From Thalassobaculaceae bacterium (GTDB lineage Bacteria; Pseudomonadota; Alphaproteobacteria; Thalassobaculales; Thalassobaculaceae): a stretch of 64,000 nt of DNA. The DNA lies in NCBI GenBank assembly GCA_965228875.1, contig OZ245843.1, forward strand, positions 2,648,616-2,712,615, read 5' to 3'. The position numbers and the translations under genes were made by a program. Positions 15,196 to 33,377 of the stretch are shown here, piece after piece; positions within the stretch are counted from its first letter, which is position 1, and each line of letters begins with the position of its first letter. The notes under the pieces were generated by a model. It searched no databases and was not told the origin of the DNA. It was given only the letters and a program-made list of their open reading frames with translations.

Positions 15196-16311
15196 TCAGC
15201 CGTCCTTCTTCGGCGCGGTGGCAGCCTGGTGCGAGTCGCTCGGGAAATCATTGAGTTTCGGCTCGATCTCGCGCTGGATCCGGCGCAGATCGCGGACGTG
15301 CCGGGCGTTGTTGCCGTCGTCGAGTTCGACCGCCCGGCGCAGCAGGTCGGCCGCCTTCACCTTGTTGCCGTACTCGGCGAGATGCATCCCGTAGGCGTGA
15401 ACGATACGCGGGAAGTCAGGAGACATGCGGTAAGCCTCCTCGTACTTCTTCGTCGCCTCCTTGATCTTGCCCTGCGCCATCAGCGATTTCGCCCAATAGA
15501 CGATCGCCTCCGGGTAGTGCGGGTCGATCTCCAGTGTCTTCTTGAAGCGGCCGATCGCCTCGTCGTGCATGCCCATCTTCGCCAGCGACTCGCCCCAGCG
15601 CATCATCGGGCGCGGAAACGTCGGGTCCAGCGCCAACGCCTGCCGGTTCTTCATGATCGAGCCTTCGAGATCACCCTCGAAGAACAGGACGTGCGCCCAC
15701 AGGGCGTAGACCCAGGGCAGGTTGCGGCGCGGCGCATGGACCAGCGCGTGGTCGATCGAATTCTTGGTCAGGGTGAATTCGCCCGTCGGGATCTCGTGGC
15801 GGAAGTGGTAGACCGCGATGAGGTAGGGATCGAGTTCCCCCAACAGGGCGATCGCCGCCTCGCGCAGCAGGCCATCGACGTCGTCCTTGCTGCCCCGCTT
15901 CTCCACGATGAAGTGCCAGTACTCGGCGGACTGGCCGCGCACCCGAAGGATCAGTTCGTCGCCATCCTCGACGAACTCCCCGGAGAACGAATACGGCAGG
16001 AAGCCGAGAGCGACCTGGGTCGCGCGGATCGGCTGGGCCAGGCCAAACCAGTCGCTCAAGGCCTCGACCGACTTGGCCTGGGCGGTCTCCTCGGCGACGT
16101 AGGCACCGCGGTTCGTCCCCGCCTCGTCGCTGACCCGCGCGATGCTGTCCGACAGCATGGTGGTCGCCACCTCGGCGGAATAGCCCTGATCCTCCATGGA
16201 GGGCGGGACGGATATGTTCTGGATGACGATGGTGTCAGGACTGATGAAATAGGACACCGCGAAGAACGCGCCGACCGCCAACACCGGAATCGACAGAAGA
16301 TTATCCAGCAC
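15196..16311 (-). CDS. Membrane-anchored tetratricopeptide repeat protein
   Basis: N-terminal TM helix; C-terminal TPRs (ALALDP, LEIDPHYPEA, AYRMSPDF). Confidence 0.8.
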   Translation of the reverse strand: MLDNLLSIPVLAVGAFFAVSYFISPDTIVIQNISVPPSMEDQGYSAEVATTMLSDSIARVSDEAGTNRGAYVAEETAQAKSVEALSDWFGLAQPIRATQVALGFLPYSFSGEFVEDGDELILRVRGQSAEYWHFIVEKRGSKDDVDGLLREAAIALLGELDPYLIAVYHFRHEIPTGEFTLTKNSIDHALVHAPRRNLPWVYALWAHVLFFEGDLEGSIMKNRQALALDPTFPRPMMRWGESLAKMGMHDEAIGRFKKTLEIDPHYPEAIVYWAKSLMAQGKIKEATKKYEEAYRMSPDFPRIVHAYGMHLAEYGNKVKAADLLRRAVELDDGNNARHVRDLRRIQREIEPKLNDFPSDSHQAATAPKKDG

Positions 16312-16452
16312 CGCTACTACCCTCCATATCGCGAGCGCCGCGAGGATACCATTGCCCGGCCCTCCCGCGAACAGACCTCATCCACCCCGCCGGCCACGTG
16401 CCGGCCTCATCCGATCGTCCGGACCGCATCCGCGGCCCGGCGTCCCGTCCTC

Positions 16453-17631
16453 TCAAAAAACCCGCTGTCCGAACGCCACGACCTGGCGACCGTCGAGATC
16501 GTAGACGAAGGTCGACGATTCCAGGAACGAGAACGGAATCTTGATGCCGACCCGGTCCGCGATCAGGAAATTGATCGCCAGGTCCGGCGGCGACACCGTG
16601 CCGACCGGCAGCGTTCCCGGATCGGCCTCGCCGGTGACCACCCGGACCGCATAGACCGCCGACAGGGTCAGCGCGCTGGTCAGGTTCACGCCGATCGACA
16701 GCAGCGCCGACTCCTCGCCGGCACGCACGATGTCCGGCAGCATGGAGATCACCGGCAGCTTTCCGGCGTGGCGATTGATCTGGGCGATTCTCTCGTAGAC
16801 CGCGGTCGACCCCGTGACCAGTAGGAGGCTGCGCGCTCCGTCCGGGTCCAGCGCCCGCATCTCGGCGATCGCCTCGGGCAGCCTTGCGTCCAGTTCCTCG
16901 GCCGCCGAGCCGCGCCCCTGAACGGTGATGTGGACGATGTCGAGGCCTAGCGCGTCCGCCGCCCGAACAAGCGGATTCACCTGGGTGAGAACCGCGCTCG
17001 CGTTGTCTTCCGAATACAGCAGCCCGATGGTCGAGAGGCTGGGAATCATCCGCCGCAGATAGGCGACCAGGGTTCCGGTCTCTACGTTGATCGAGGTGTA
17101 GGCGATGTTGGTCCCGCTGCCGGCCGGATCGTCCAGGTGACCGGAGGCGATCGGATCCTTCGACGCGCTCGTCACCGCCGGAATCGTGTGGCCGCTGTGG
17201 TGTTCGCGCAGGAAGGTCGTGGCCGACGATCCGGCGGACATGATGAGATCGACCGGCTGGCCGTAGGCCCAGTGCAGGGCCTCCTGCGCCACGCTCTCGT
17301 CGCCGTCGTAGTACCAGATGTCGAACCGAGCCGGCACCTGACGGCGGGCGAAGACCTGCAGGATCGTGTTGACCGCCAGCGTATAGGCCTCGACGGAGCG
17401 GCTCGGGATCAGGATCATCACCCGCTTCGACGCGGCCCGGCCGGACGGAACGGCGACGTGGCGGGCGGTGTCGCCGCCATCGGTATCGACCTCATAGGCC
17501 GCCAGCGTCGCCGGGTCGTAGCTCAGCCAGTCCAGGACGGGCCGGTCGGCGGCCAGCGCCGCGGCGTTCGCCCCGGCGGCAAAGCCGAGGGCGAGAAAAA
17601 TCAGAAGTCGGGCGGCCAGTGTCGTCATCAT
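16453..17631 (-). CDS. ABC-type substrate-binding protein (ABC_sub_bind-like), no cognate ABC permease adjacent
   Basis: Signal peptide; GTNIAYTS, IGLLYS..N, GEADPGTLPVG and AINFLIADRVGIKIPFS motifs. Confidence 0.75.
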   Translation of the reverse strand: MMTTLAARLLIFLALGFAAGANAAALAADRPVLDWLSYDPATLAAYEVDTDGGDTARHVAVPSGRAASKRVMILIPSRSVEAYTLAVNTILQVFARRQVPARFDIWYYDGDESVAQEALHWAYGQPVDLIMSAGSSATTFLREHHSGHTIPAVTSASKDPIASGHLDDPAGSGTNIAYTSINVETGTLVAYLRRMIPSLSTIGLLYSEDNASAVLTQVNPLVRAADALGLDIVHITVQGRGSAAEELDARLPEAIAEMRALDPDGARSLLLVTGSTAVYERIAQINRHAGKLPVISMLPDIVRAGEESALLSIGVNLTSALTLSAVYAVRVVTGEADPGTLPVGTVSPPDLAINFLIADRVGIKIPFSFLESSTFVYDLDGRQVVAFGQRVF

Positions 17632-19726: not shown

Positions 19727-20104
19727 TTACTCGCCCGTGTACCAGGCGTCGGCGTACAGACCGCCGCTGACCGCACCGAGCAGGCGCATGCTGCCCCGGA
19801 AGAAGGCATAGCCCGGCGTATGGACCAGCGCGAGGGCGCTGCCCTGACCGAGCGCGCCGATGCTGGAGCCGGTCAGCATGCCGTAGACCGGCAGGATCAG
19901 ACCATCGGTGACGATCGTGGCGACCACCGCACCGCCGACCACGCCGGCGGTCACGGCGACGGCCCGGTAGGCGTCGAAGCCCGACGCCTCGATCGATTCC
20001 GGAACGGCCGGCACACTGCTCTGGGCCTGGGCGCCGGTGGCACCGGCGACGACGAGGCCGAGAACGACCACCAGGGCCCTGGCGAGCATGGAAAGCTTGG
20101 TCAT
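19727..20104 (-). CDS. Exported/membrane glycine-zipper small protein 1
   Basis: Signal peptide (AQA); AGVVGGAVVA and LLGAVSGGLYADAWY GxxxG segments. Confidence 0.7.
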   Translation of the reverse strand: MTKLSMLARALVVVLGLVVAGATGAQAQSSVPAVPESIEASGFDAYRAVAVTAGVVGGAVVATIVTDGLILPVYGMLTGSSIGALGQGSALALVHTPGYAFFRGSMRLLGAVSGGLYADAWYTGE

Positions 20105-20176
20105 GAGGTTTCTCCCTTCAAGGACAGCTCGATTAAAGTGTGCAAGGCGTTCGGTCCGGCACCCGTCGGCCGGGTC

Positions 20177-20578
20177 TCAGTCACGGGCAAAGTAGTTGCC
20201 GGCCAGCCCGCCCCCGAAGGCGACGACGGCCGTTGCGAGTGTGTGGATCGCCATCTCGCCGGCCAGCGGCGCGGTTCCGAGGGCCGCCAGCCATGTGCCG
20301 CCGATGACGTTCGATGTCTGCAGTCCGACGACCGGGGCGAGCGCCGCCCCACCGGTGACGACATTCAGTGCCAAAGCGCCTCCGGCGGCGCCGAGAAACG
20401 AACCGCCGAGCGAACTGACGAGTACGGCGTCAGTGTCCCGCGCGTCGTCGAGCGACTGCACGATGGTCGGGCCGAGCGCGGGCTGGCCCGCCAAGCCGCC
20501 CTGTTGGGCCGCGACGGGCGACGCCACCAGAGCGAGCGCTACCGCGGCGATTGCGAGAATTCCGTTCGTCTTGCCCAC
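20177..20578 (-). CDS. Exported/membrane glycine-zipper small protein 2
   Basis: GTG start after AAGGGGG; signal peptide; LGGSFLGAAGGALALN and AFGGGLAGNYF. Confidence 0.7.
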   Translation of the reverse strand: MGKTNGILAIAAVALALVASPVAAQQGGLAGQPALGPTIVQSLDDARDTDAVLVSSLGGSFLGAAGGALALNVVTGGAALAPVVGLQTSNVIGGTWLAALGTAPLAGEMAIHTLATAVVAFGGGLAGNYFARD

Positions 20579-20954
20579 TTCGCCCCCCTTCGACCTCCGG
20601 CCGGTCCGGCCGATGGCGACCGCCGATTTTCCCGGCTCTATCGGTAACCATACCATATCGATGGCTGTATCACCGCCGACCTCGGCTGCGACATTTGGGC
20701 CCGCGCATCCCACCCCGTCGGACCCGAGCGCCGGGCGCGCCTAGCCTGACACCTTCGAATCCGTGATCGGGAATACCGACCCGACCTCCCAAAGGCTTGA
20801 AAACACCCGTCTTCGATCCTACCGTTCTGCCAATTGGGTGGCAACCGACGGCGGCGGCGCGGGCCATAGACAGCGCCGGGACGCGGCTTGCGCGGACCAT
20901 GCCGGATGGCCCCGCCGAGAGAGATTTCGTTGCCGCACCGCGGAAGGCCGTCCC

Positions 20955-21479
20955 ATGGAGCACAGCGCCGAACAGATCGTCGCGCACTGTAGCGGCGCCT
21001 TCAGCACCCTCACGCTGTTCGAGACGCACCTGGCCATCGACCGCGGCCAGCTCATCTGCGATTTCCACGAGATCGTGTTCCGCTCCCACCCGGTCCGCAA
21101 GAGCCGGATCGAGATCGCCGAGATCACCGATCTCAGCCTCACGGCATCGATGATCCTGCCGCCGCTCTTCGTCATCCGCTATGCCGGTTGCTCGCAGCTC
21201 ACCGGCTCGATCCTGCACGACGCCATTCTTGAAAACGTCCACATGCTCAGCTTCGTTGACAACCGCCCGTTCTACGCGCTGTACCATGCGCTCGACGACA
21301 TGATCTCCGAGTTCCGGTCGCGGGCGTTGGACGAGGGCGACACCGACGCGGCTCCCGCCGGGATCGACGCCCAAGACCCGAGCGACCCGGAACAGAAAGA
21401 CCCGGAACGGACCGAGCCGGACCAGACCGACCCAGGATTGCCCGCACCGGCGCAGTCCGACAGAACAGCGACGACCTGA
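20955..21479 (+). CDS. Hypothetical protein (beta-rich N-terminus, acidic Pro-rich tail)
   Basis: GC3-biased ORF, first gene of the 20955-24179 operon. Confidence 0.65.
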   Translation: MEHSAEQIVAHCSGAFSTLTLFETHLAIDRGQLICDFHEIVFRSHPVRKSRIEIAEITDLSLTASMILPPLFVIRYAGCSQLTGSILHDAILENVHMLSFVDNRPFYALYHALDDMISEFRSRALDEGDTDAAPAGIDAQDPSDPEQKDPERTEPDQTDPGLPAPAQSDRTATT

Positions 21480-21483
21480 TGCC

Positions 21484-22596
21484 ATGACGCTTCGCACTGC
21501 CGCGACCTACCTGTTCTCGCTCGCGATCCTCGGGGCTTTCGCCACCAGCGGGGTCTACGCGTTCCGCGGATCGCCGTTCGGTGGCCAGGAGAACGCCGCC
21601 GAGTTCGTGCGTCCCGACTGGGCGCGCGAGATCAACAACCACGTCGGCTTCCCCGCCTACAGGCTGCGCGACGACGGCTCGTCGGTCGCCATCGGGCGGG
21701 TCGTGATGCTGGGGCCGGAACGCCTCGAGGTTTCGGTGTTCCCCGACGTGCACATGCCGCCGCTGGGCGAGGCGCGGGTGCTGCTGCTGGAGACCAACGC
21801 CCGCTCCCTGCTGGCTCTGGTTCCAGACGCGTCCAGGGCGCAGATGGGGCGGGACATGGAGCGGGTCGCCCGCTCGATGCGCGACCGCTTCGTGTCCATC
21901 GTGCGCGACCCGGCGTTCGACGAGCGGTACCGCACCCGCCTGCAGGATATCGTGGTCGACGCCTACCGCAGGGTCCGGGCCGATCCGGCCCTGGATCTCG
22001 CCACTGACCGGGCGATCGAGATCTATCGCCACGAATACGCTCCCGAACTCAGCAACAGCCTGCTGATCGCCGCCGTGCCACGGATGCGCGCCGCCGCGCT
22101 GGAGATGATGACGCCGAGCTGGCAGAGCATGATCGACCTGATCACCGAAGGCAGGGTCGACTACAGCCCGCTCGGCGACGCCGCTGCCGACCTGCTGCGC
22201 AATGACAGCTTTTTCGACTCGCTCGTCGTCCACGCCCTCGACCTCGGCCGCGACCGGCGGTTCTGGCGGCTCGGCGTGCTGCTGGCCGATGCCTTCATCG
22301 ACGAGATTTCCGACGATCCCCGCACCGAGGCGCTGCTCGACGACATTGCCCGGGATCCGGCCTTCCACACCGAGCTGCAGGTGCTGGAGCGGGAGGCCGC
22401 GACGGCGGCCACGACCATGTTCTCGAGCGTCGTCGGCCGCGGGCCCGAGATGCGCCCGGACACCCTGGCGGTCCGCATCATCCGTTATATCCTGCTGCGC
22501 CGTCCCCGCGTCGTCGCCGTCGTTCTCGAGGAGGGCGCCACGCCGCCCTCCAGCATGCTGGGACGCTTCGCCCCCCTGACCAAGGCCGGATCTTGA
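21484..22596 (+). CDS. Membrane-anchored protein with a long helical region (possible MCE/MlaD analogue)
   Basis: N-terminal TM, short beta-rich segment, then helical region; stop overlaps the start of the MlaF-MlaE fusion. Confidence 0.65.
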   Translation: MTLRTAATYLFSLAILGAFATSGVYAFRGSPFGGQENAAEFVRPDWAREINNHVGFPAYRLRDDGSSVAIGRVVMLGPERLEVSVFPDVHMPPLGEARVLLLETNARSLLALVPDASRAQMGRDMERVARSMRDRFVSIVRDPAFDERYRTRLQDIVVDAYRRVRADPALDLATDRAIEIYRHEYAPELSNSLLIAAVPRMRAAALEMMTPSWQSMIDLITEGRVDYSPLGDAAADLLRNDSFFDSLVVHALDLGRDRRFWRLGVLLADAFIDEISDDPRTEALLDDIARDPAFHTELQVLEREAATAATTMFSSVVGRGPEMRPDTLAVRIIRYILLRRPRVVAVVLEEGATPPSSMLGRFAPLTKAGS

Positions 22597-24179
22597 CCCT
22601 GACTCCGAACGATGTTTCCGGCGGGCCCGTCCTCACGGTCTCGTCGCTCTCGATCACGCAGCCGGCCGGACGGGTCCTGCTGCGCGACGTCGATCTGTCG
22701 CTGAACGCCGGCGAGATCGTCATCCTCGCCGGACCGAGCGGTAGCGGAAAATCCACGTTCATCAACCTGCTGTCCGGCGCGATCGATCCGCGCGAGGACG
22801 GCTGGCAGGCCTCCGGCTCCGTCGCCTACGGCGGCGGCACCTACGACCTGGCCAGCGACCGGGTGGCGATCGGCGGCGTGGTGTTCCAGAACTTCGCGCT
22901 GTTCGACGACCTGTCGATCGCCGACAACCTCGCGATCGCCAGCGATCACAGCGCACCGGTCGGCCAGGGCCTGCGGGAGGCGATCGATCACCTGCTGGAG
23001 GACGTCGACCGGCACCGGCCAGTGGGCGCGGCCAGCGGCGGGCAGCGCCAGCGCGTCGCCATCGCCCGCACCCTGCTGGGCAACCATCCGGTGCTGTTCC
23101 TCGACGAGCCGAACTCCGGTCTCGACGTGTCGTCCTCGCGCCAGCTCGCCCGCCTGCTGCGCGACCTGGTCGACGAGGTCGGGATTCCGCTGGTCATCAT
23201 CGCCCACCACTTCCGCCACCTCATCGACATCGCCGACAGGATGATGGTGCTGGACTCCAACGGACACACCCTGGTCGAGCTTCCGGTCGCCGGCGACGCC
23301 ATCGAGGCGGCCCTGTCGGCGGTGGAGAGCGGCGAGACGGTGACGCCGGCCGAACCGGCGCCGCGACCGGAGCGCAGGGAGCCGGACACGACCGCGGCCG
23401 CAAGTCCGCCATCGGCCCTCGCCAGCCCGGAATGGCGCCTGGAATGGGCGCTGCGGTACTTCTTCGGCTACATCTGGGAGCTGTGCTTCGCCCCGTCGGC
23501 GCTGCTGTTCGTCGGCCTCGGCTGCACCATCGTCGGTTTCGTGACGACCTGGTTCATCTTCATGTACCTGCCGTTCCGCGACTACCTGCTGCCGGTCATT
23601 CATTCCGACGCGCTGGCCGGCCTTGCCTTCGCCGAACTGCGGGTGCTCGCGCCGCTGATGGCGGCGGTGCTGATCAGCGTGCGCAACTGTTCGCTGATCA
23701 CCGCCAATATCGGCCACAAGGTCTATTCCGATCAGATCAAGTCGATGCGCAACCTGAACGTCCCGCACCGGCTCTACCTGAACACCATGATCATGACCGC
23801 GTCCGCGGTGGCGGCGGTGTTCCTGGCGGTCGTCGCGGTCAGCGTCACCGCCTGGATGACGATGATGACCTGGTCCCAGATCTTCCCCGACGGCTCGACC
23901 TACATGTGGCGCGACCAGTTCTTCCAACGCCTGTGGCCCCCGGGCGTGTCCATCATGGTCGGCTGGGACTGGATCCTCGCCAAGAGCGTGCCGTCGATCG
24001 TCGGCGCCGCCGCCATCGCGCTGTATTTCGGGTACCGTCCCAAGAAGGACGTCCTGGACATCAACAGGGCGATCGCCCAGTCGCTGATCTGGGGGCTGTC
24101 CTTCGTCCTGACCTGGCAGTCCATTCTCACGCTCGTCGAATTCAAGCAGGTGTCCGCCCGGCTCGAAGCGACGTTCTGA
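22593..24179 (+). CDS. ABC ATPase fused to an MlaE-type permease
   Basis: GPSGSGKST, VFQNFALF, ASGGQRQR and LFLDEP, followed by the MlaE-like LRVLAPLMAAVLISVRNCSLITANIG...QIKSMRNLNV...YL. Confidence 0.85.
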   Translation: MTLTPNDVSGGPVLTVSSLSITQPAGRVLLRDVDLSLNAGEIVILAGPSGSGKSTFINLLSGAIDPREDGWQASGSVAYGGGTYDLASDRVAIGGVVFQNFALFDDLSIADNLAIASDHSAPVGQGLREAIDHLLEDVDRHRPVGAASGGQRQRVAIARTLLGNHPVLFLDEPNSGLDVSSSRQLARLLRDLVDEVGIPLVIIAHHFRHLIDIADRMMVLDSNGHTLVELPVAGDAIEAALSAVESGETVTPAEPAPRPERREPDTTAAASPPSALASPEWRLEWALRYFFGYIWELCFAPSALLFVGLGCTIVGFVTTWFIFMYLPFRDYLLPVIHSDALAGLAFAELRVLAPLMAAVLISVRNCSLITANIGHKVYSDQIKSMRNLNVPHRLYLNTMIMTASAVAAVFLAVVAVSVTAWMTMMTWSQIFPDGSTYMWRDQFFQRLWPPGVSIMVGWDWILAKSVPSIVGAAAIALYFGYRPKKDVLDINRAIAQSLIWGLSFVLTWQSILTLVEFKQVSARLEATF

Positions 24180-24356
24180 CCGGTCAATCGCGCGACCAGC
24201 GGGTACGGTCGGCCGGAACCGGCAATCCGCGACTGGATTTTCGCGGTCACACGCGTCCTAATGCGCCGCAGCGAGAGCCCGGTGCGCAAGGGCCGGTTCA
24301 CCGATCGGCTCATCGTGGGCCGGCCGGATCAGACGCGACGCACGGGAGCCGAACGG

Positions 24357-25265
24357 ATGCAGCAGTTCCTCGACTTCATGGGCGCCATGCGCGGCGGCCG
24401 GAGGTTCGTTTCCCTGGAGGAGGAGCGCGGGCTGCTTCAGACCGCCACCACCCGCCACGGGATGACCCTGGACGATGCCCGCTCGGCCCTGCTGGTCGGC
24501 GCCCGGCAGTCCGACCTGCTTCTTGAGAGCGAGGTCGCCGACGAGGTAACCGCGTTTCTCTCCGCCCGGATCGGCCAGGACGGCCGGGTGAGCAGGGCGA
24601 ACTTCCGCGCCGCCGTCGACTTCTTCGCCCGGCGCACGGGCAATGCCGTCTCGCCGACGGAGGCCGAGCAGCGCGTGCGCCAGTTGGTGGTTCGCGCCGG
24701 CTGGACCCCGGCGCCCGCCGGCTGGCTGTGGCGCAGCACCGCCTGGTTCGACTCCATCCCGGCCCCGACGCCCCGCGCTCGGCCGATGCCGCCGGGGGTC
24801 GGCCTCGAGCCCGGTACCCTTCATGGCGGCGCTCCCCAGGGCGGCGCACCGATGGCGACCGGCGACCCGGGCTCGGTGCTGTCGACCTGGGCCGCCGCGC
24901 TGCGGTCGCGCAACGTGGAGCGGATCCTCGCCCTGTACACCCAGGACGCGCTGCTGCTGGCGACGGCGGAGCACCGACCGCTGATCGGCCCGCCGCAGAT
25001 CCGGACCTATTTCGACCGCCTGACCTCCTACGAGGGTCTGACCGTCACCTTTCAGGAAGAGTTGCAGCGGCTGAGTTCCGACCGGGCGACAACGATCAGC
25101 GGGCTGTACACCTTCGCCTGGATCGACCCGGCAAGCGGCGCCGAACTGGTCACCCCGGCACGCTACACCTACACCGTGCGGGACGGCGACGGCACGCGGG
25201 CGCGGATCAGCCTGCACCACTCCTCCCGGCTGCCCGGAAACTACCCGGGAGCGACCGAGATCTGA
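24357..25265 (+). CDS. Unknown helical domain fused to an iota-carbonic-anhydrase-like / CaMKII-association (NTF2/SnoaL fold) domain
   Basis: C-terminal W..AL, LY..DA.LL(A)T, IRTYF, SGLYTF, PARYTY and HHSS motifs; alternative start at 24261. Confidence 0.75.
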   Translation: MQQFLDFMGAMRGGRRFVSLEEERGLLQTATTRHGMTLDDARSALLVGARQSDLLLESEVADEVTAFLSARIGQDGRVSRANFRAAVDFFARRTGNAVSPTEAEQRVRQLVVRAGWTPAPAGWLWRSTAWFDSIPAPTPRARPMPPGVGLEPGTLHGGAPQGGAPMATGDPGSVLSTWAAALRSRNVERILALYTQDALLLATAEHRPLIGPPQIRTYFDRLTSYEGLTVTFQEELQRLSSDRATTISGLYTFAWIDPASGAELVTPARYTYTVRDGDGTRARISLHHSSRLPGNYPGATEI

Positions 25266-25320
25266 GCGATCGAGATCAGCCAGATCGGACGGCCAGGGGA
25301 CGAACCGTCCCCCGGCTCGC

Positions 25321-25746
25321 TCAGGTCTGGCGGCCTTCCTCGACGATCTTCACGCCGCCGATCCGCGAGTGGAAGTGGGCGTAGCAGAGGCCGATGCACA
25401 TCACCACGACCAGCGTGAACTGCATGGCGTTGACGAGATCCGTGCGGCTCTCGATCACCACCCACTCCTTGTCGATGGCGAACAGGGCGCCGGCCGAGGT
25501 GGTGATCGTCACCAGAAGCAGTCCGGTGCGCTGCAACGCGACGGCCCCGGTCTCGGTGATGTTGTAGACGGCGAAGCCGAGCATGCCGAAGCAGCAGATC
25601 TTCAGGATGATGTCCTGGTCCGGATAGTCCACGACCCAGTGGTAATACGAGTATCCGCTGGTGTTGTACGAGGCGAACACCACGAAGGCCGGATAGAGCA
25701 GCCGGGCCAGAATCCCGCCGGGGCCGAGGATGAAGTGTCCGTCCAT
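25321..25746 (-). CDS. DUF6524-like small membrane protein
   Basis: VFASYNTSGYSYYHWV motif, four hydrophobic segments, C-terminal HFHSRIGG. Confidence 0.65.
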   Translation of the reverse strand: MDGHFILGPGGILARLLYPAFVVFASYNTSGYSYYHWVVDYPDQDIILKICCFGMLGFAVYNITETGAVALQRTGLLLVTITTSAGALFAIDKEWVVIESRTDLVNAMQFTLVVVMCIGLCYAHFHSRIGGVKIVEEGRQT

Positions 25747-25819
25747 GCGATCCGATCCGCCGTTGGACTGCCGCGCAAGGCCGATACCCTAACCAGCCTG
25801 GGCCGCCGTAGGCAAGCGG

Positions 25820-26791
25820 TCAGCAGGCCGCGGCCACCGTCGGCAGCCGACACAGGGAGGTCGACAGGCGGGCCCTGGCATCGGCGATGGTCAGGTCGCG
25901 CTGCTCGCGAACGACAGCGGTGAGTGCGCCCTCCAGTTCCGGCCGGTTCAGGGCGCTGTCTGCCCAGTTGATCATGTAGTCGGCGCCCCAGAGGCCGGCG
26001 GCCAGCACGCCGGAGAAGAGCGAAGCGCCGACCAGCCCGCCGGCGTCCAGCGTCGCGGCGGCGGCGGCACCGCCGAGGGCCGGGATCACCAGCGGCACGA
26101 CGACCATCCGTGTGGCGGCGCTCAGCATCCGGATCGACAGCGGCCGCGCGGAACGGACCAGCACCCGGTCCGCATGGGGCCGATCGTCGTCACCCACCGC
26201 CGCCACCAGCCGGGCGCCGAGCGCAAGCCGTTCCGGTGCCGGCGGCCGCCACCCCGCCAGCAACGGTTCCGCGAACCGGGATGGCGCCCCCCGATCCGCC
26301 CGCTGACGCGCAAGCCGGCGGTCCAGGCGGCGGAGTTGCTCGACCGTGCCCGCCCAAGCCGTCGCCAGGTCCCGCGCGGCGGTCTCCGGCACGATCACCC
26401 GGTCCTCGAACTCGTCACCCACATAGGTTTCCAGATCGCGGACGACACCGGCACCGTCGATCCGTCCGTCGCGTGCGATCTGGGTCCCGGCGGCCTGGAG
26501 CCCCACGCCGGCCAGCCGCGCGCTGACCTCGATGCTGGACAGCCAGCCGTAGATCCAGCCGCCGTAGTCCGGAATCCGGTCCTCGATCCGCTCGAAGGGC
26601 TGCGCCAGCCGCTTCGCCACCAGGTCGTCGGCCGCCAGCCGCAGCGTGAGGGCATCGCGTGCGACCCAACGTTGGGCCCGAACCTCCGAAACCGCGGCCG
26701 AGGCGCCGCCCGCCGGGTACACGACCGTCCAAAGGATCAGCGCGAAAAGCCCACAGGCAATAGAAATCAACAACCGTTGCGAATATTTCAT
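25820..26791 (-). CDS. Hypothetical membrane protein with a glycine-rich hydrophobic hairpin
   Basis: N-terminal TM, helical middle region (RIPDYGGWIYGW), LGGAAAAA..GGLVGASLFSGVLAAGLWGADY. Confidence 0.65.
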   Translation of the reverse strand: MKYSQRLLISIACGLFALILWTVVYPAGGASAAVSEVRAQRWVARDALTLRLAADDLVAKRLAQPFERIEDRIPDYGGWIYGWLSSIEVSARLAGVGLQAAGTQIARDGRIDGAGVVRDLETYVGDEFEDRVIVPETAARDLATAWAGTVEQLRRLDRRLARQRADRGAPSRFAEPLLAGWRPPAPERLALGARLVAAVGDDDRPHADRVLVRSARPLSIRMLSAATRMVVVPLVIPALGGAAAAATLDAGGLVGASLFSGVLAAGLWGADYMINWADSALNRPELEGALTAVVREQRDLTIADARARLSTSLCRLPTVAAAC

Positions 26792-26966
26792 CTACATAAT
26801 GCCATGCATCATTACCGTTCCGACGCGGTCGTGTCGACGCGCCGGACGCGTCGGATCCGGATCAAGAGACCATAAACGAGGTGACGTTCGAAGACCCTTG
26901 ATGCATTATGTGCACCGCAACAGCCTGACGTCGCCAACCGACCAGAAACGAACGGGAGAATGTGGG

Positions 26967-27413
26967 ATGAAAGCGCTGGCTTACTTGTTGTTTTCCGCCG
27001 GCCTCATGATTGGGTCCGTGTCGGCGGCGTCGGCGCAGCAGACCGCTCCGGCGGCGACACCTCCGGCCGTCGAGAGCGCGGTGTCCTCGGCCGAGGCGGT
27101 CGGCGGCGCGGTCCTGACGCCCGAGCAGCTCGAGAATCTGAACGCCCTTGTCGACCAGATGCAGGACAGCATGGACGACATGGTTCAGGCGGCCCGCGAT
27201 GCGGCGCTGCAGATCGGCAGTGACACCAAGACCGTGGTTCTGACCACCAACGACGTCGTGGCCATCGCCATCGGCTCGGTCGGCGGCGCGCTGGCGGTCG
27301 ACCTGCTGGGCGGCGGTGGCATCGCCACGCTGGCCGGTGCCGTGGTCGGCGGCGTGGGGGCGCACTGGCTGATGACGCGCTCCGACGATCTGTTCGAGCT
27401 GCCGTCGTACTGA
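26967..27413 (+). CDS. Exported/membrane glycine-zipper small protein 3
   Basis: Signal peptide (ASA); AIAIGSVGGALAVDLLGGGGIATLAGAVVGGVGAHW. Confidence 0.7.
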   Translation: MKALAYLLFSAGLMIGSVSAASAQQTAPAATPPAVESAVSSAEAVGGAVLTPEQLENLNALVDQMQDSMDDMVQAARDAALQIGSDTKTVVLTTNDVVAIAIGSVGGALAVDLLGGGGIATLAGAVVGGVGAHWLMTRSDDLFELPSY

Positions 27414-27589
27414 GGATATCGGGCGGCGTCCGGAGCGGGCGCCGCCAAGCCTGCAGGGAAGGGAATTTCGGGGGGTACGGCGGTTCCGACGAATCACCCG
27501 GCGAATCGGTTTCTGATTGCGCCGCGGGCCGTTTGCGTTGATAAAATGGCCCCGATTTCAAGGAATTGCTGAACGGGTAGCGGATATCG

Positions 27590-28036
27590 ATGGCGTCAGA
27601 TTCAGAGACGAGACGGCGGTTCGCCGACATGGTCCGCATCGAGGGGATGAACGGCGGGTTCATCCGCGCCGAGGACGAGCGTCGCCTGCTTCAGGAAGGC
27701 ATGACCCGCTTCAACCTGACCCTCGACGAAGCCAACGGCGCCATGCTGGCGACGGTCAACGATCAGAAGCTGGTGCTTCAACGGGTCGCCGACGAGGGAA
27801 CCCGCGAATTCCTCAACATGCAGGCCAACCGCGGTCGCCAGCGCCGCCTTTCCCGCGACGACTTCCGGCAGGCGGTGGAACTGTACCGGGCCAAGGCCCG
27901 CCAGCGGGTCTCCGAGGACGAGGCCAAGCGGCGGGTGAAGGCCCTGATGCTCGAAGAGGGCATCACCGCGAAGCGGCACGGCTGGTTCATCCGGTCGCGA
28001 CGCTGGTTCAATTCCATTCCGGAACTGCTTGCATAG
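27590..28036 (+). CDS. Stand-alone paralog of the N-terminal domain of the 24357 protein
   Basis: Shared motifs E(E/D)ER.LLQ, TR...TLD(D/E)A, SR..FR.AV, VS..EA..RV and GW..RS..WF.SIP. Confidence 0.75.
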   Translation: MASDSETRRRFADMVRIEGMNGGFIRAEDERRLLQEGMTRFNLTLDEANGAMLATVNDQKLVLQRVADEGTREFLNMQANRGRQRRLSRDDFRQAVELYRAKARQRVSEDEAKRRVKALMLEEGITAKRHGWFIRSRRWFNSIPELLA

Positions 28037-28091
28037 GACATCAGGGGTAAGCCCGCCGGCACCCCGTGGCCCGCAACCCGAGGATAGTGGC

Positions 28092-29789
28092 ATGGCGAAC
28101 CGACCACGGCTTCCCAACGTGGATCCCGAAGACCTTGCGAAGCTGGCGAGCCAGTATCCGGGAAGCCGCACCTCCGGTGAGGCCGATGCGTCTGCCGGCG
28201 GCACGGGATCGGGTGGATCGGGTACCGGCAGCGCCGGGACGAGTGCCGCGGCCGCCTCTCCCGCCGGCACCCCGTCGTCGCGACTTTCCGCCTCCCGTGG
28301 CAGTGGCAGTGGCAGTGGCTCCTCAGCCGCCGGCGGCGCGGCCGGCAGCGGATCGGGCGGCGGTTCGGCCAGCAGGTCGGGCGGAACCTCCGCAACCGGC
28401 ACGCCGCCGCCGGCCAAGGCACGCGGCAGCTGGTCGGCAGCATTCCTGACATTTCTGTTCGCCGTGATCGCGCTCGCCGCCGCCGTCGCCTCGATCGGCG
28501 CGCCCAGCTACCGGGCGGAGATCCGCGCGCTCCTGACTACCTACGTGAAACCCCATCTGGACCTCGAACAGGACACGATCGACATCGTCTCCGGCTACGA
28601 CACCGACCGGCTAGAGGTGACCTACGAAGGTCTGGATCAGCGGATCGAACAGCTCGCCGCCGCCCTCGATCGCGTCGCCGCCACCGACGGCGTATCGGGT
28701 GACGATGTCCGGCAACTGCTGTTCCGCGACGAGACTGCAGACCGGATCGACACCATGGGCGACGGGCTCGACGCCCTGTCGGGACGCGTGGCCACGATCG
28801 CCGACGAGGCCGCCGCGCAGGCGGACCGGATCGACGGCCTCGGCGCCGATCTCGCCGCCACCGGCGAGCGCCTGACGGCGGAGATGACCGGCACCGCCGA
28901 CCGCATGTCGGCCGAACTGGCGACCGCCATCGAAACGGTGCGGACCGAGACGACCGCCGACTTCGAATCCCTGAACGCCGACCTGCAGGAGGCCGTTGCC
29001 CGCGTCGAGGGGTCGATCGCCTCGCTGCAGGACGCGCTGACGGCCGCCCGCGGCGAGATCGATGCCCTGTCCCCCCGCATCGACGGGATCGACACCGCGA
29101 TCGAGAATCAGGTCTCAGTTGATGCGGCGATCGCCGATCGGCTGAACGCGGTGGACGAGCGCGTGGACGGTCTGGTGGGCGACTTCACCGACCTCCTGGA
29201 CCTGAGCGACCAGGTCGCCCAGACGGTCAGCACGTTCAAGAACGAGAACATGCCGATCCTGGCGGTGATCCAGCTGCGCGACGCGATCAACCGCTCCGGC
29301 CCCTACGGCCCCGAGCTTTCCTTCGCCCGCCGGGTCCTGAACGGCGCCCCGGGAATCCAGGCGGCTCTTGAGAAACTGGATTCCAGCGCCTCGGACGGCA
29401 TCGCCTCCGTGCCCGAACTGCGGCGCGATCTGCGGCTGATCGCCCGGAATCTGGGAACCATCGTCGCCCAGGTGGAATCCTGGTCGGATCGGGTGTCCGG
29501 CTGGTTCAACATGCTGGTCGGCGCATCCGCCGTACCCGAGGTCCGGCAGGGCGGCAGCGTGGTCGCGGTCGTGGCGACGATCGACGACGCGCTCGACCGG
29601 GGCAACCTGGAGCTGGTGATCCGCGAAGGCGCGGCGCTTCAGGCCGAGTGGCGGTCGCCGGCTCTCGCCGACTGGCTGCAGGCGGTGGTCGAGCGCATGG
29701 AGGTCACGGCGGCTGTCGGCACGCTCCAGGACGTGGTCTACACCCGTGCGACGACGTCTCAGCCCAAGGGGACGGACAAGGCCCAGTAG
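28092..29789 (+). CDS. Mitofilin/Mic60-like (COG4223) membrane protein A
   Basis: Gly/Ser-rich N-terminus, one TM, long acidic coiled coil, then the C-terminal pattern LRDAINRSGPYGPEL, ASDGIASVPELRRDL, WSDRV, ALDRGNL, ADWL. Confidence 0.75.
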   Translation: MANRPRLPNVDPEDLAKLASQYPGSRTSGEADASAGGTGSGGSGTGSAGTSAAAASPAGTPSSRLSASRGSGSGSGSSAAGGAAGSGSGGGSASRSGGTSATGTPPPAKARGSWSAAFLTFLFAVIALAAAVASIGAPSYRAEIRALLTTYVKPHLDLEQDTIDIVSGYDTDRLEVTYEGLDQRIEQLAAALDRVAATDGVSGDDVRQLLFRDETADRIDTMGDGLDALSGRVATIADEAAAQADRIDGLGADLAATGERLTAEMTGTADRMSAELATAIETVRTETTADFESLNADLQEAVARVEGSIASLQDALTAARGEIDALSPRIDGIDTAIENQVSVDAAIADRLNAVDERVDGLVGDFTDLLDLSDQVAQTVSTFKNENMPILAVIQLRDAINRSGPYGPELSFARRVLNGAPGIQAALEKLDSSASDGIASVPELRRDLRLIARNLGTIVAQVESWSDRVSGWFNMLVGASAVPEVRQGGSVVAVVATIDDALDRGNLELVIREGAALQAEWRSPALADWLQAVVERMEVTAAVGTLQDVVYTRATTSQPKGTDKAQ

Positions 29790-29807
29790 GGCTGCGCCCG
29801 AGCGTCC

Positions 29808-30422
29808 GTGGAACCCGGTGAACTGCTCGCAGCGCTCGGTGCCCGCCTGGTCGGCGGCATCGTCCTGGTCGCTCTGCCCGTGGCCGGATATGTGGTTGCG
29901 AACGCGGTCTGGCGCGTCCACGCCCTTCACTTCTTCCACCGGGTCACCCTGCTGTCGAAGCTGGCGATGGCGACCGGCATCCTGCTCGGCATCGGCGTGA
30001 TCGCCGCGTCGGACGCCCGGCCGTCCTTCGACATCAACGATATCCTCGCCGCAGGCGGAGCCTGGGACCTGCCGTGGCGGAAATTCCTCGCCGATATCGG
30101 CAATCCGGGCCTCTACGACTACGCGCCGCTGTGGATACACCTGACGACCGCCGAACTCGACGGCCCGTGGGTGGTCTACGGTGTCGCGGTCTCCGCGGCC
30201 GGTATCGCGAGCGCCGTCGCCCTGCTCGCGATGCTTCGCGGCGAGGAGTTCCTGATCGGCGTCGTCGCCATGCTGTACGAGATCCTGGTCATGCAGGCGC
30301 TCACCATGTACGCGGTCCTTCTCCTGGCCTACGCCCTGTGCACGTTCAATTTCTGGACGGTGCTGATCGCCCTGATGGTCCTGCAGTATTACAGGTACGT
30401 TAAACATCCGGCCGGGCACTAG
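29808..30422 (+). CDS. Hypothetical integral membrane protein
   Basis: About five hydrophobic segments; lies between the two Mic60-like genes. Confidence 0.7.
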   Translation: MEPGELLAALGARLVGGIVLVALPVAGYVVANAVWRVHALHFFHRVTLLSKLAMATGILLGIGVIAASDARPSFDINDILAAGGAWDLPWRKFLADIGNPGLYDYAPLWIHLTTAELDGPWVVYGVAVSAAGIASAVALLAMLRGEEFLIGVVAMLYEILVMQALTMYAVLLLAYALCTFNFWTVLIALMVLQYYRYVKHPAGH

Positions 30423-30522
30423 AATTTCCAGGGATGCGGCGGTTTGCGCCTCAGCGACCCGATACATTTCACATCGGCTGTAGTATGATCACCGGGAACG
30501 TCTCTCAGCAAAATTATGGGGA

Positions 30523-31902
30523 ATGGTCGTGACGGACGAGGACACCGGCGGCACCGCCAAGACGACGAAGCGCAAGTCCGCCTCGACGGCCTCGCGCTCG
30601 ACCTCCAAGCCCCGGGCGAGAACCGGATCGGCCAAGACAAGTGCCTCCAAATCCGGCGCCACAAAGGCCGGTTCTGCAAAGACCGGTGCCTCGAAGACCG
30701 GTGCCGCGAAGACCGGGTCGGCCAAGGCCGCCTCTACGAAGGCCCCTGAGACCAAGGCCCCTGAAACCAAGACACCCGAGACCAAGACACCTGAGACCAA
30801 AACACCGGCGACGCAGGCCGCCGCCGCCAAGTCGGCAGCCAAGTCCGCCGCTCCCCCGACACCGGAAGCTTCGGTGTCGGACGCCCCCAAGACCGAACCG
30901 ACCAAGACCGACTCCCCGCAACCCGAAACGCCGAAGGCTGCAGCCCCGATGACCGACGCTTCGAAGACTGAGACCCCGAAAACGGATGCTCCGAAGACGA
31001 CGCCGCCCCAGGCTGCCGCGGCGTCCTCCGGCCCCACGACAGGTGGCGGCACGGGTGGATCCGGCAGCGGCGGCGGCGGAGGCTCCTACCCCGCGCCGGC
31101 CGTGGCACCCCAGCCCGCGAGCGGAGGCCTGTTCAGCATGCCGATGGTCCTCAGCCTCGCGGCGATCGTGATCGCGATCCTGATCCCGGTAATCAACCAG
31201 AAGGCCTACGAGCCGGCCATTCAGCCGACCGACATCGCGGCGCTGGAGACGACCCAGGCCGAGCTGGCGGCGTCGGTGGCCGAGATCAAGGCGAGCATCG
31301 ACGCGCTGTCCGTTCAGCAGGACACGCTGCGGAGCTCGATCTCGGCGGTCAGGATTCCGGCCGTGATGATCGCCGCCTCCGACCTGCGGGCCGCGATCGA
31401 GTCCGGCGAGGAATTCGCCGAGCCGCTAACCCTGTTCGAGGCTATCGCCGGCGAGAATGAGGCCGTTGCGTCGGTCTACGAACTCCGGCCCCTGGCCTTG
31501 GGCGGCATCCCGACGGTCAAGGAACTGCAGGCGGCGTTCGGCAATCTGTCGCACGAGGTGGTCGCCAGCTATCAGACCGTCGCCTCCGAAGGCGACCTCG
31601 CCAAGCGGGTGTCAGAGACCATGGCCAATCTGACGGCGGCGACCACGCGGCTGCGTTGGCGCCTGGACGGCACGACCCCGCCGGAAGGGGACTCGCCCCT
31701 GGCGGTGATGGCGCGCGCGGAGATCGCCGCCGCCAAGGCCGATTTCGATGCGGTTGTCGCGGAGATCGAGACCCTGCCGGAAGACCTCAAGGCAATCGCC
31801 GCCGGCTGGATCGAGCAGGTGCAGGCGCAGAAACAGGCGACGACGGCGATCGAGGATCTCGACCTGTTCATGATCGAAACCCTCGCCAGTGCGCGGAAGT
31901 AG
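30523..31902 (+). CDS. Mitofilin/Mic60-like (COG4223) membrane protein B with a Lys/Ala/Thr-rich repetitive N-terminus
   Basis: One TM, coiled coil, then LRAAIESGEEFAEPL, GGIPTVKELQAAF, AVMARAE...ADFDAVVAEIETLP, AGWIEQVQA. Confidence 0.78.
   Translation: MVVTDEDTGGTAKTTKRKSASTASRSTSKPRARTGSAKTSASKSGATKAGSAKTGASKTGAAKTGSAKAASTKAPETKAPETKTPETKTPETKTPATQAAAAKSAAKSAAPPTPEASVSDAPKTEPTKTDSPQPETPKAAAPMTDASKTETPKTDAPKTTPPQAAAASSGPTTGGGTGGSGSGGGGGSYPAPAVAPQPASGGLFSMPMVLSLAAIVIAILIPVINQKAYEPAIQPTDIAALETTQAELAASVAEIKASIDALSVQQDTLRSSISAVRIPAVMIAASDLRAAIESGEEFAEPLTLFEAIAGENEAVASVYELRPLALGGIPTVKELQAAFGNLSHEVVASYQTVASEGDLAKRVSETMANLTAATTRLRWRLDGTTPPEGDSPLAVMARAEIAAAKADFDAVVAEIETLPEDLKAIAAGWIEQVQAQKQATTAIEDLDLFMIETLASARK
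30630..30810 (+). repeat. Coding 15-bp (pentapeptide) tandem repeats KTGAA/KTGSA and KAPET/KTPET
   Basis: aaggcccctgagacc aaggcccctgaaacc aagacacccgagacc aagacacctgagacc..., preceded by aagaccggtgcc units. Confidence 0.8.
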
Positions 31903-31934
31903 GCATCGCCTGCCAGACATCGCAATCACGATCG

Positions 31935-31965
31935 GGACCGGCGTTTGCCGGTCCTGTTTCGTTTT
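31935..31965 (+). terminator. Rho-independent terminator after Mic60-like B
   Basis: ggaccggc-gttt-gccggtcc hairpin followed by tgtttcgtttt. Confidence 0.65.
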
Positions 31966-32001
31966 CGGCCCCGTTTTCCGACCCCGGTGCTTCGGCCCCG
32001 G

Positions 32002-32655
32002 CTAAGCCTCGGAGAAGAGGACCGGCTCGATCTCGCGGGCGAGGTTGCGAATCTCCAGCGCCGCGCGGTTCTTCGGCGCGAGGCTGAGCGGAGAGGCGCC
32101 GTGATAAGAGGCCTCCTGGAACACGACCCGGTCGCCGATCCTGGCGTTCAGCGGCCGCAGGCCAAGCTGTTCGAGGTTGCGTTCCGTGTGGCGGACCACG
32201 GTCGTCATCCGCTTGACCCGATTGAGCACGGAGTGAAACGGGATGTCGCGGCGCGTCAACTTGCTGGCGCTGTCGATCACCTGCTTCATCTTGGCCGCCT
32301 CGAACAGGCTGGCCTCGTCGGGCATGACGGGGACCAGCACCATGTCGGCGACGCCGACCGCATAGACCATCGCCTGGTTGCCGAACCCGGCGGTATCGAC
32401 GATCACGATATCCGCCTCTTCGCCGAGCGCGTAAACGCTCTCGATGATCTCGTGCTCGTTGGAGTTGGCGCTGACGGAGATGTCCTGGAAGCCGGTCCCG
32501 CTCTTGCGGGCCCAGCGCGCCATCGCCTCGTTCGGATCGGTATCCAGAATGGCCACCGTCTTGCCCTGGTCGCGCCAGTAGGAGGCCAGGGCGGCCCCGA
32601 TGGTCGTCTTTCCCGTTCCGCCTTTACTGGTGGCTACCACAAGGATACTGGCCAT
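32002..32655 (-). CDS. Short ParA-family ATPase (type Ib-like), no parB adjacent
   Basis: ATSKGGTGKTT, LDTDPN, IVDTAG, VLNRV and RVVFQEA. Confidence 0.9.
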   Translation of the reverse strand: MASILVVATSKGGTGKTTIGAALASYWRDQGKTVAILDTDPNEAMARWARKSGTGFQDISVSANSNEHEIIESVYALGEEADIVIVDTAGFGNQAMVYAVGVADMVLVPVMPDEASLFEAAKMKQVIDSASKLTRRDIPFHSVLNRVKRMTTVVRHTERNLEQLGLRPLNARIGDRVVFQEASYHGASPLSLAPKNRAALEIRNLAREIEPVLFSEA

Positions 32656-32783
32656 GACCGACAAGACTCTCGTGCAGTGGAACTGCAATGATGGCCGACG
32701 CGTCCTGCCGACGATAGCGCGATGTTGCCCGGCGTCGGGATTTCCGCTTTAGTGCGCCGGTGTCCTGGCAGGCGGATCCTCTG

Positions 32784-33377
32784 ATGAACGCTCGGAAATC
32801 CTCGAACAACCGCAGGTTCCTGCGGAGTACGGTCTGTGTAGCCGCGCTGGCGGCGGCACTCGCCGTGGCCCAGCCGACGCCCGCCAGGGCCGGCCTGGTC
32901 AGCGACGCGCTGGGCACGATGGCGCGCTGGGTATCGGGAATCGAACAGATCATCACCGAATGGTTCGACGCGACCATCGGCACGATCAAGGTGATGGACC
33001 GCGAGGAGAGCGCGGCCCGCGCCGTCGCCGAGATGGCGTTGCAGGATCCGACCACCCTGGCCGAGATCGCCGGCCGTGCCGGGTTCCGTCTCTCCACTGT
33101 CAGTTTCGCGGACGGCGGCAGGCACGTCGACGGTCTGAGCTTCGCCTACGAGCAGATGATCCCGCGGGAAGGCCGCCTCGCTCTCTGGCGCGATGTGCTC
33201 GAGGTCGAGGACACGCCCTTCCGTCCGGAGATGGAACTGGTCCGTCTGCTGCTGAACGCCTCCGACATGCAGGAGAACCGGGCTCCGGCGGGTCTCACGC
33301 TGGCCGGCGTCGCGATCGCCCTCGACGACGACACCCTCTCCGCCTCATGGCGGTTCGAGCCGCTGCCGACCGAGTAG
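32784..33377 (+). CDS. Exported protein with a probable Tat signal
   Basis: NRRFL followed by a hydrophobic stretch and ARA cleavage site. Confidence 0.65.
   Translation: MNARKSSNNRRFLRSTVCVAALAAALAVAQPTPARAGLVSDALGTMARWVSGIEQIITEWFDATIGTIKVMDREESAARAVAEMALQDPTTLAEIAGRAGFRLSTVSFADGGRHVDGLSFAYEQMIPREGRLALWRDVLEVEDTPFRPEMELVRLLLNASDMQENRAPAGLTLAGVAIALDDDTLSASWRFEPLPTE

Follow-up and report, generated by a model that had tools for sequence, protein, structure and literature searches.

Within the stretch of DNA analysed here (the window), which is 64 kb (G000:C1:2648616-2712615) of the single-contig 4.96-Mb genome of a Thalassobaculaceae bacterium with ~68% G+C, two plus-strand genes encode proteins that are very probably anciently diverged paralogues of alphaproteobacterial Mic60. 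The one called C (459 aa, 30523..31902) is clearly related to Mic60, and the one called A (565 aa, 28092..29789) is related by profile methods only. Both open reading frames (ORFs) had been singled out in an earlier reading made from the letters alone (the sequence-only reading), which took them for Mic60/mitofilin-like paralogues away from the usual hem genes. The genome also holds a canonical copy. The Pfam family PF09731 (Mitofilin) matches at two places, and the stronger match (58.9 bits) is at 3.895 Mb, in the locus tsaD / hemC-hemD-mic60-hemY_N(orf52) at ~3.892-3.897 Mb on G000:C1, which is ~1.2 Mb from the window (2.649-2.713 Mb). The canonical Mic60 encoded there is 572 aa long and has a single transmembrane (TM)-like segment at residues 111-141. 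This is the separate hem-linked copy that the sequence-only reading had left to be sought. Its claim that no hem genes are nearby held as well, because tblastn with the canonical-locus proteins found no homologue of hemC, hemD or orf52/hemY in the 64-kb window at E<=0.01. Since the canonical hem-linked copy is elsewhere and hem genes are missing from the window, A and C are supernumerary. It had also been stated that alphaproteobacterial Mic60 is typically single-copy beside hemC, hemD and orf52, and this agrees with the accessible part of 10.1101/2022.06.14.496148.

Mitofilin homology of A and C

Hydropathy scans, which were used for all TM segments, and profile comparisons bore out the architecture that had been described for A and C, namely a low-complexity N-terminus, one TM segment, a coiled coil and a mitofilin-like C-terminus. 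A starts with a conserved N-terminal peptide (residues 1-25), which is followed by a G/S/A-rich linker (residues ~26-111; residues 26-112 are 75% G/S/A), a TM helix at residues 112-140 that is the single hydrophobic segment, a conserved juxtamembrane part (~141-215), a coiled coil of variable length (~215-385) and a mitofilin-type C-terminal domain (~385-550; 29244..29741, plus strand) delimited by hhalign, profile search and a PDB sequence match. GAGGA is found 9 nt 5' of the ATG of A and every orthologue begins MANRP; an alternative longer TTG start is at 28029. In C, residues 1-198 form a low-complexity tail rich in K, T, S, A and P with repeats (residues 1-204 are A/T/S/K/P/G-rich), and this is followed by the single TM-like segment, a helix at residues 199-229, a further helix (~235-280) and the mitofilin domain (~283-450; 31369..31872, plus strand), which was placed by a sub-threshold Pfam match, hhalign and a PDB sequence match. 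The AlphaFold2 (AF2) models of the C-terminal parts are all-helical, contain long helices and are of good confidence, with a predicted local distance difference test (pLDDT) score of 86 for C and 78 for A.

The tail of C (30653..30998) contains three tandem-repeat arrays with periods of 15, 15 and 30 bp, which encode KTG/KTPET-type repeats. The length of the C-type tail varies greatly among species, and C-type proteins range from 263 to 459 aa.

Six alignments were used: A1 (A, 17 rows), A2 (C, 13 rows), A3 (C-terminus of C, 11 rows), A4 (C-terminus of A, 13 rows), A5 (the canonical Mic60 of the family, n=17) and A6, which was built from 60 sampled next-best Mic60-type matches of the A4 profile with short fragments dropped. 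By BLASTP the canonical Mic60 of the same genome matched C (E 8e-8, 28% over 236 residues) and A (E 5e-7, 27% over 377 residues), and both matches are colinear to the C-terminus. Profile-profile comparisons by hhalign against canonical Mic60 (A5) gave 99.1% for the C domain (A3; E 1.3e-18, 214 columns), 98.2% for the A domain (A4; E 3.8e-14, 178 columns) and 99.1% for full-length A (A1; E 1.2e-18, 305 columns). The hidden Markov model (HMM) of A4, searched by plain HMMER over 1.84 billion representatives, retrieved 14 A-type proteins at E<=1e-30, and after a gap in E from 1.6e-36 to 7.4e-22 it retrieved 467 proteins at E<=1e-10 and 3187 at E<=0.001. When the next-best matches were sampled, 57/60 had Pfam Mitofilin and 5/60 had a fused HemD. 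In a PDB sequence search with A3 and A4, the sole match below E 0.1 was 7pv1_A, which is Mic60 fused to Mic19 (E 5.5e-5 for A3, that is C, and E 9.3e-4 for A4, that is A).

Motifs read from the alignments are LRDAINRSGPYGPEL, 'GIASVPEL' and a conserved Trp in 'ADWLQ' for A, and LRAAIESGEEFAEPL, 'GIPTVKEL' and a conserved Trp in 'AGWIEQ' for C. The signature patterns given by the sequence-only reading fit these approximately, except that the Gly is one residue off in A and C has 'PL' and not 'EL'. The domain opens with a pattern L-R-x-A...[F/Y]..(E/P)-L, which every A3 and A4 row shares with the consensus drawn from 60 diverse Mic60 proteins. Lipid-binding site 1 (LBS1) of Mic60 is described, in the part of 10.1101/2025.01.31.635831 available to us, as a conserved aromatic residue with an upstream Arg and, as judged from the alignments, the Arg and aromatic motif of A and C would correspond to this residue pair.

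A Pfam Mitofilin match was one of the checks that the sequence-only reading had pointed to, and here the outcome was divided, since the profile methods match both proteins, whereas C falls below the cut-off and A is unmatched. The PF09731 match in C (E 0.0025; residues 240-443 against profile positions 401-606 of 614) scores 17.3 bits and the cut-off is 27.4 bits. In A, Mitofilin was not matched at E<=0.1 and only generic coiled-coil families were found, the Pfam and NCBIfam coiled-coil matches lying in its middle at residues ~170-390; when 17 A orthologues were run against Pfam (E<=1), Mitofilin was not among the 25 families listed of 110. NCBIfam gave nothing specific for either window protein. 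Structure searches by Foldseek (PDB), by VIA second look for A and C and by VIA wide for C returned generic helical bundles, with no Mic60 chain among the matches listed, the best Z being 10.0 (A) and 7.8 (C). Those Mic60 chains that have been solved are short fusion constructs. The Pfam and structure-search results speak against the homology proposed here and for the alternative that A and C are ordinary coiled-coil membrane proteins that resemble Mic60 in composition only, in a neighbourhood that is coincidental, and Ala/Leu-rich helical sequence at ~68% G+C can inflate profile scores. We consider this alternative very improbable, and it was already disfavoured, because the matches lie outside the coiled coil, in the C-terminal domain, run colinear up to the end of the protein and carry family-specific motifs, because the A-domain HMM retrieves Mitofilin proteins, some of them fused to HemD, because the only PDB sequence match below E 0.1 is Mic60, and because the synteny around A and C persists across genera at 26-35% identity. 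In favour of homology, PF09731 matches 10/13 of the C orthologues at E<=1 (best E 5.2e-9), and the whole-genome Pfam scan placed 7 C-orthologue places above the cut-off and 7 below it. NCBI names the C orthologues 'COG4223 family protein', several with a precomputed PF09731. Those of A go by 'hypothetical protein' in the databases, apart from a single 'COG4223 family' label in UniRef.

It had been claimed that A and C are tandem paralogs. Both are homologues of Mic60 by the profile methods, but they are not a recent duplicate pair. Direct BLASTP of A against C gave low-complexity matches only, and hhalign of A1 against A2 (96.0%, E 4.6e-9, 155 columns) was weaker than that of either protein against canonical Mic60. 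A tree of 104 mitofilin domains, made quickly by maximum likelihood (181 columns, unrooted, with Shimodaira-Hasegawa-like approximate likelihood ratio test (SH-aLRT) support only), divided A (23 rows, support 96), C (11 rows, support 100) and the canonical copies of the family (30 rows, support 98) into three groups. A is not the sister of C, and neither lies within the canonical-family clade, so that the phylogeny against canonical Mic60 suggested by the sequence-only reading puts each in a clade of its own. With an unrooted tree of a short domain, in which two C rows sit on very long branches, we read only this much from the comparisons: either the duplications are old or the copies are fast-evolving, and A and C are not a recent tandem pair. 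The same within-genus groupings recur in the A and C clades: the g1 loci fall together with L031 close by, and so do L029, L030 and L032, the three loci of g3. This is expected if the pair has been inherited together. A mobile-island origin was dropped as a candidate since the G+C of the window is even and the A and C clades share these within-genus groupings; integrases and tRNAs were not searched.

The probable p148-A-B-C unit and its cluster

As the sequence-only reading had it, A and C are separated by one membrane protein, and the ORF map and TM scan agree. This protein, B (29808..30422, plus strand, 204 aa), is a multi-pass inner-membrane protein with ~4-5 hydrophobic segments and a conserved loop, GG.WD..W..FL....DP.LY.Y. 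It has no known family in Pfam or NCBIfam, and ESM Atlas gave no usable match. Directly upstream of A is p148 (27590..28036, plus strand), a small soluble basic protein without a TM segment by hydropathy. The four genes are co-directional, with gaps of 55 nt (p148-A), 18 nt (A-B) and 100 nt (B-C), and p148 is probably the first gene of a p148-A-B-C unit. Two sequencing runs that were tentatively taken for RNA have short contigs covering parts of p148, A, B and C, which is no evidence of transcription. A consensus scan found a terminator-like hairpin (31933..31956, plus strand) 31 nt past the stop codon of C, with 10 pairs, of which 8 are G-C, followed by a T-run; it likely ends this transcription unit. 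The count of such sites in the region was no higher than in shuffles.

For synteny, the window proteins were run by tblastn on 20-kb stretches at A orthologues, which covered 12 loci in six genera. In 12/12 loci p148 and B flank A, and in 11/12 a C-type gene follows B, so that B is between A and the C-type gene; the twelfth locus is ended by a contig edge and its C is likely on another contig of the same genome. Since the frames of A, B and C are kept open in the 12 loci and six genera at 26-75% identity, they are real genes. The best conserved protein of the cluster is p148 (47-89% identity, 12/12 loci), which is always directly upstream of A. It has no significant match in Pfam or NCBIfam, its sole Pfam row being SgrR_N at E 0.039, below the cut-off, and its nearest ESM Atlas cluster is unnamed and has 2473 members. 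At locus L034 (G009:C1:5310500-5330499) p148, A and B are kept, and the C-type gene is short (263 aa), very divergent and has no long tail.

In the family sample of 61 genomes, the A1 profile gave strong full-length matches in 16, distributed by genus as 6/10 in g1 (the window's own genome included), 6/6 in g3 and one each in g7, g9, g10 and g11. The matches totalled 22 genomes, and the weak ones in G015, G025, G033, G040 and G003 are at the canonical Mic60 place; G005 has two matches (E about 2e-4 to 4e-4) away from it. PF09731 matches 47/61 of these genomes, and second matches are found solely in genomes with A. Two genomes labelled as the same genus, G017 and G026, are listed at only ~1.5 Mb. 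In a class sample of 400 further genomes (~200 families) plus the window's own, A-type matches at E<=1e-25 were found in 1/401, the window's own genome, and in 0/400 of the others.

The genes p148, A, B and C are part of a conserved cluster of 15 genes on both strands (19727..33377, ~13.6 kb), which was recognised by tblastn synteny and has been passed on as one block across six genera of the family. All its genes are single-copy in the window's genome. It begins with two glycine-rich small membrane proteins (19727..20104 and 20177..20713, both minus strand; Pfam/TM scan), which are followed on the plus strand by u238 (20763..21479; cluster synteny), a 370-aa anchored protein (21484..22596; cluster synteny and TM scan) and a fusion of an ATP-binding cassette (ABC) ATPase and an MlaE permease (22593..24179; PF00005 at residues 30-174 and PF02405 at residues 304-514). 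The fusion ORF and the 370-aa anchored ORF before it share 4 nt at the stop of the latter. Next are a 334-aa protein with a p148 domain at its N-terminus and an NTF2-like SnoaL C-terminus (24261..25265, plus strand; p148 paralogy), a DUF6524 protein (25321..25746, minus strand; Pfam), a 323-aa membrane protein (25820..26791, minus strand; TM scan) and a secreted Gly-zipper protein (26967..27413, plus strand; cluster synteny), and beyond C are a small ParA-family ATPase (32002..32688, minus strand, convergent with C) and a secreted 205-aa protein (32760..33377, plus strand; cluster synteny). A gene for TauD abuts the cluster on opposite sides in two genera, which fits a cluster that behaves as a unit.

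The p148 domain is found twice in the cluster, alone and as the N-terminus of the SnoaL protein, at ~42% identity, and both copies are conserved across genera. The products of 19727..20104, 20177..20713 and 26967..27413 have a signal-like N-terminus and glycine-zipper-type hydrophobic C-terminal segments and are conserved with the cluster. A defence-system reading was dropped after PADLOC, run on the 15 cluster proteins, returned generic coiled-coil and ABC matches only.

Judged by its family matches, the product of 32002..32688 is a ParA/MinD-superfamily ATPase: Pfam gives AAA_31, CbiA, VirC1 and MipZ, and the NCBIfam model NF041546 (ParA_partition) is covered at positions 1-203 of 203 with 144 bits, below its cut-off of 180. 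No ParB-like gene was recognised beside it by Pfam or NCBIfam. The gene adjoins C in 9/12 loci, and L010 is cut.

Possible role of A and C

[quoted passage not shown] The mechanism set out next is more tentative, and we would put it somewhat below even. A and C would be held in the inner membrane by the TM helix. Their coiled coil and mitofilin domain would face the periplasm, and their low-complexity N-terminal tails should stay in the cytoplasm since they have no signal peptide; this topology follows what is described for the Mic60 family in the accessible parts of 10.1101/2022.06.14.496148, PMC5379949 and PMC5460017. Together with multi-pass B, the two proteins would make a MICOS-like assembly that, at particular sites, curves the inner membrane or ties it to the outer one. 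The assembly would work with the Mla-like ABC/permease fusion and the small membrane proteins of the cluster, and it is this partnership that would make it a matter of envelope or lipid organisation. The cytoplasmic tails would be the handle by which p148 and/or the ParA-like ATPase place it, the handle being the conserved 25-residue peptide in A and the K/R-rich tail in C.

The N-terminal peptide of A (28092..28166), MANRP(R)LPNVDP..L..LA.(Q/R)YP, is nearly invariant in 13 A sequences and unique within the window's genome; the trailing G/S is variable in the two most distant orthologues, and the linker behind the peptide is hypervariable among orthologues in length and sequence. Since an invariant short peptide with a freely varying linker is the signature of a short docking motif, the peptide looks like a docking motif for a cytoplasmic partner. 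The sequence-only reading had imagined specialised membrane-junction proteins, an idea that follows from family membership, perhaps as a hetero-oligomer of A and C with B as partner; a complex prediction with A(105-565), C(195-459) and B gave scores of 0.00 and 0.00, which is uninformative either way.

Several observations weigh against a MICOS-like assembly. No Orf52/HemY_N-type partner was found in the cluster by Pfam or tblastn, and by tblastn ParA was not found beside the cluster in L033 and L034, which represent two genera. Two complete genomes of the same genus, G053 and G060, have neither A nor a second mitofilin match and, since the cluster is missing from them, it is dispensable and accessory within the genus. 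To our knowledge no intracytoplasmic membranes have been reported for the genus, nor is the lineage known for internal membranes.

The transporter raises the alternative that A and C are periplasm-spanning struts of an Mla-like phospholipid transport route that take the place of the missing MlaD/MCE component in bridging or tethering the two membranes and have no role in curvature. The ABC/MlaE fusion is conserved in the cluster at 60-80% identity, no MlaD/MCE, MlaC or MlaB domain was detected in the cluster by Pfam, and a related cluster in a distant family, described below, begins with an MlaA lipoprotein; moreover, Mic60 makes inner-outer membrane contacts according to the part of PMC5460017 available to us. 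However, the transporter gene is in a separate upstream unit, with two minus-strand genes before A, and the fetched stretches of L031 and L033 have A, B and C without the transporter. We therefore regard a scaffold of this kind as unlikely.

ParA-type ATPases space various cargos along the cell, and the presence of one here suggests another alternative, in which the cluster builds and positions a discrete intracellular membrane compartment, A and C shape its neck in the manner of the magnetosome-island mic60 paralogue and the ParA-like ATPase spaces the compartments. The ParA gene is next to C in most loci and again next to a cryptic mitofilin gene in the distant family, and many of the cluster proteins are small, of membrane type and of no known family. 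A precedent is found in Magnetospirillum, where the mic60 and orf52 paralogues of the magnetosome island affect magnetosome number and size, according to the accessible part of 10.1101/2022.06.14.496148. Against a compartment, Pfam and NCBIfam scans found no cargo enzymes, shell proteins, photosynthesis genes or biomineralisation genes in the cluster, two genera with A and B have no ParA, and the Thalassobaculum literature listing contained no report of such a compartment. An organelle is thus an improbable explanation, and we hold the MICOS-like assembly of A, C and B to be the better reading.

The distant family is represented by locus L081 (G456:C2:72000-91999), a 20-kb stretch with an MlaA lipoprotein (PF04333, E 2.2e-47), three DUF6524 genes, a small glycine-rich protein, a B-like protein (A7 HMM, E 5.8e-10 against a small ORF set), a p148-like protein (36% identity) and a ParA-like gene (45.6% identity over 206 aligned residues). 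Directly after the ParA-like gene is a 327-aa protein (15806..16786 of that stretch) that has no Pfam match and that hhalign matched to a broad Mic60 alignment at 96.9% (E 1.7e-10). PF09731 had no match in the G456 genome, which is 95% complete. On these sequence comparisons, the grouping of ParA, B, p148, DUF6524 and Mla parts around a cryptic mitofilin protein is found again outside the family, as one clear case and not as a survey. DUF6524 is present in 19/401 genomes of the class sample, and in 12 other families none of the queried cluster genes was alongside it within +/-1.5 kb, except ParA in G456. The middle of L081 also holds an unrelated resistance-nodulation-division (RND) efflux pair (AcrB and HlyD).

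B-like proteins are present in clusters of two distant families. Locus L083 (G116:C1:1226000-1245000) has two adjacent DUF6524 genes next to a p148-like protein, a B-like protein and a 355-aa tetratricopeptide repeat (TPR) protein, which recalls Orf52, the TPR partner of canonical Mic60. No mitofilin protein was seen in this stretch.

Taken further, these findings suggest that the Mic60 family has repeatedly spun off paralogues invisible to Pfam, which became the core of an undescribed envelope system that includes a ParA-type ATPase; this is speculative and we would not expect it to hold. If it did, the parts of the system would be mitofilin proteins, B, p148, DUF6524 and Mla-type lipid-transport components, and its hosts would be non-phototrophic and non-magnetotactic marine alphaproteobacteria of six genera and, independently, of one distant family or more (G456). 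As a bacterial MICOS-like machinery it would be the third, after those of photosynthetic intracytoplasmic membranes and magnetosomes, and the peptide of A would dock a membrane-shaping complex in the periplasm to a positioning ATPase in the cytoplasm. Of the MICOS subunits, Mic60 alone came down from the bacterial ancestor of mitochondria, and its roles in bacteria have so far been in photosynthetic intracytoplasmic membranes and, through a paralogue, in magnetosomes. Its bacterial function bears on the origin of cristae, and a marine lineage of chemoheterotroph type with two extra copies would be a tractable test of mitofilin domains outside bioenergetic membranes. The A3 and A4 profiles find mitofilin proteins that Pfam misses, such as the 327-aa protein in G456. 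If A and C were merely ordinary redundant copies of Mic60, the value of the finding would be limited to improved annotation.

Comparison with known systems

The COG4223 label of C orthologues, the Magnetospirillum island paralogue and the twin proteins of Euglenozoa are known, and paralogues of Mic60 as such are no surprise. The surprise is that two deeply diverged copies, a ParA-like ATPase and Mla-type parts are found in one conserved envelope cluster. The literature searched had nothing on extra Mic60 copies in Thalassobaculum or its family or on the cluster, although the counts in Fig. 1B of 10.1101/2022.06.14.496148 may include them.

With the Mla system (MlaFEDB-MlaC-MlaA) the cluster shares an MlaE-type permease fused to an ABC ATPase, and G456 has MlaA. 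It differs in that no MlaD/MCE, MlaC or MlaB domains were detected in it, and A and C are linked to the transporter by neighbourhood only.

Canonical Mic60 (PF09731/COG4223) is like A and C in having one N-terminal TM segment, a coiled coil, an LBS1-like Arg/aromatic motif and a C-terminal mitofilin domain; the profile-profile probability against A and C is 98-99%, and the same genome holds the canonical locus. A and C differ from it in that they have no hem or orf52 neighbours and are outside the canonical clade of the family, in that A goes unseen by Pfam and NCBIfam and the C of the window's genome falls short of the cut-off, and in that their predicted cytoplasmic tails are long and distinctive and their cluster partners come from unknown families.

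The Mic60 of the Magnetospirillum magnetosome island, in so far as the accessible part of 10.1101/2022.06.14.496148 describes it, is likewise a second copy in a Rhodospirillales-type bacterium and in a dedicated cluster for a specialised membrane structure. It has an orf52 partner and magnetosome gene neighbours, whereas the cluster of A and C has two paralogues and neither an orf52-like gene nor recognisable cargo genes; the two are likened by description and not by sequence.

The nearest parallel to two copies is Mic34 and Mic40 of Euglenozoa, which the part of 10.1101/2025.01.31.635831 available to us describes as two cryptic mitofilin-domain MICOS subunits. From the same part of that source, they too are two mutually diverged paralogues that family models miss and profile-profile comparison finds, and they keep the LBS1 pair. 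Mic34 and Mic40 are eukaryotic and soluble and replace Mic60, whereas A and C are bacterial, membrane-anchored by prediction and coexist with canonical Mic60. A and C may thus be a bacterial counterpart to the two-paralogue Mic34/Mic40 arrangement of trypanosomes.

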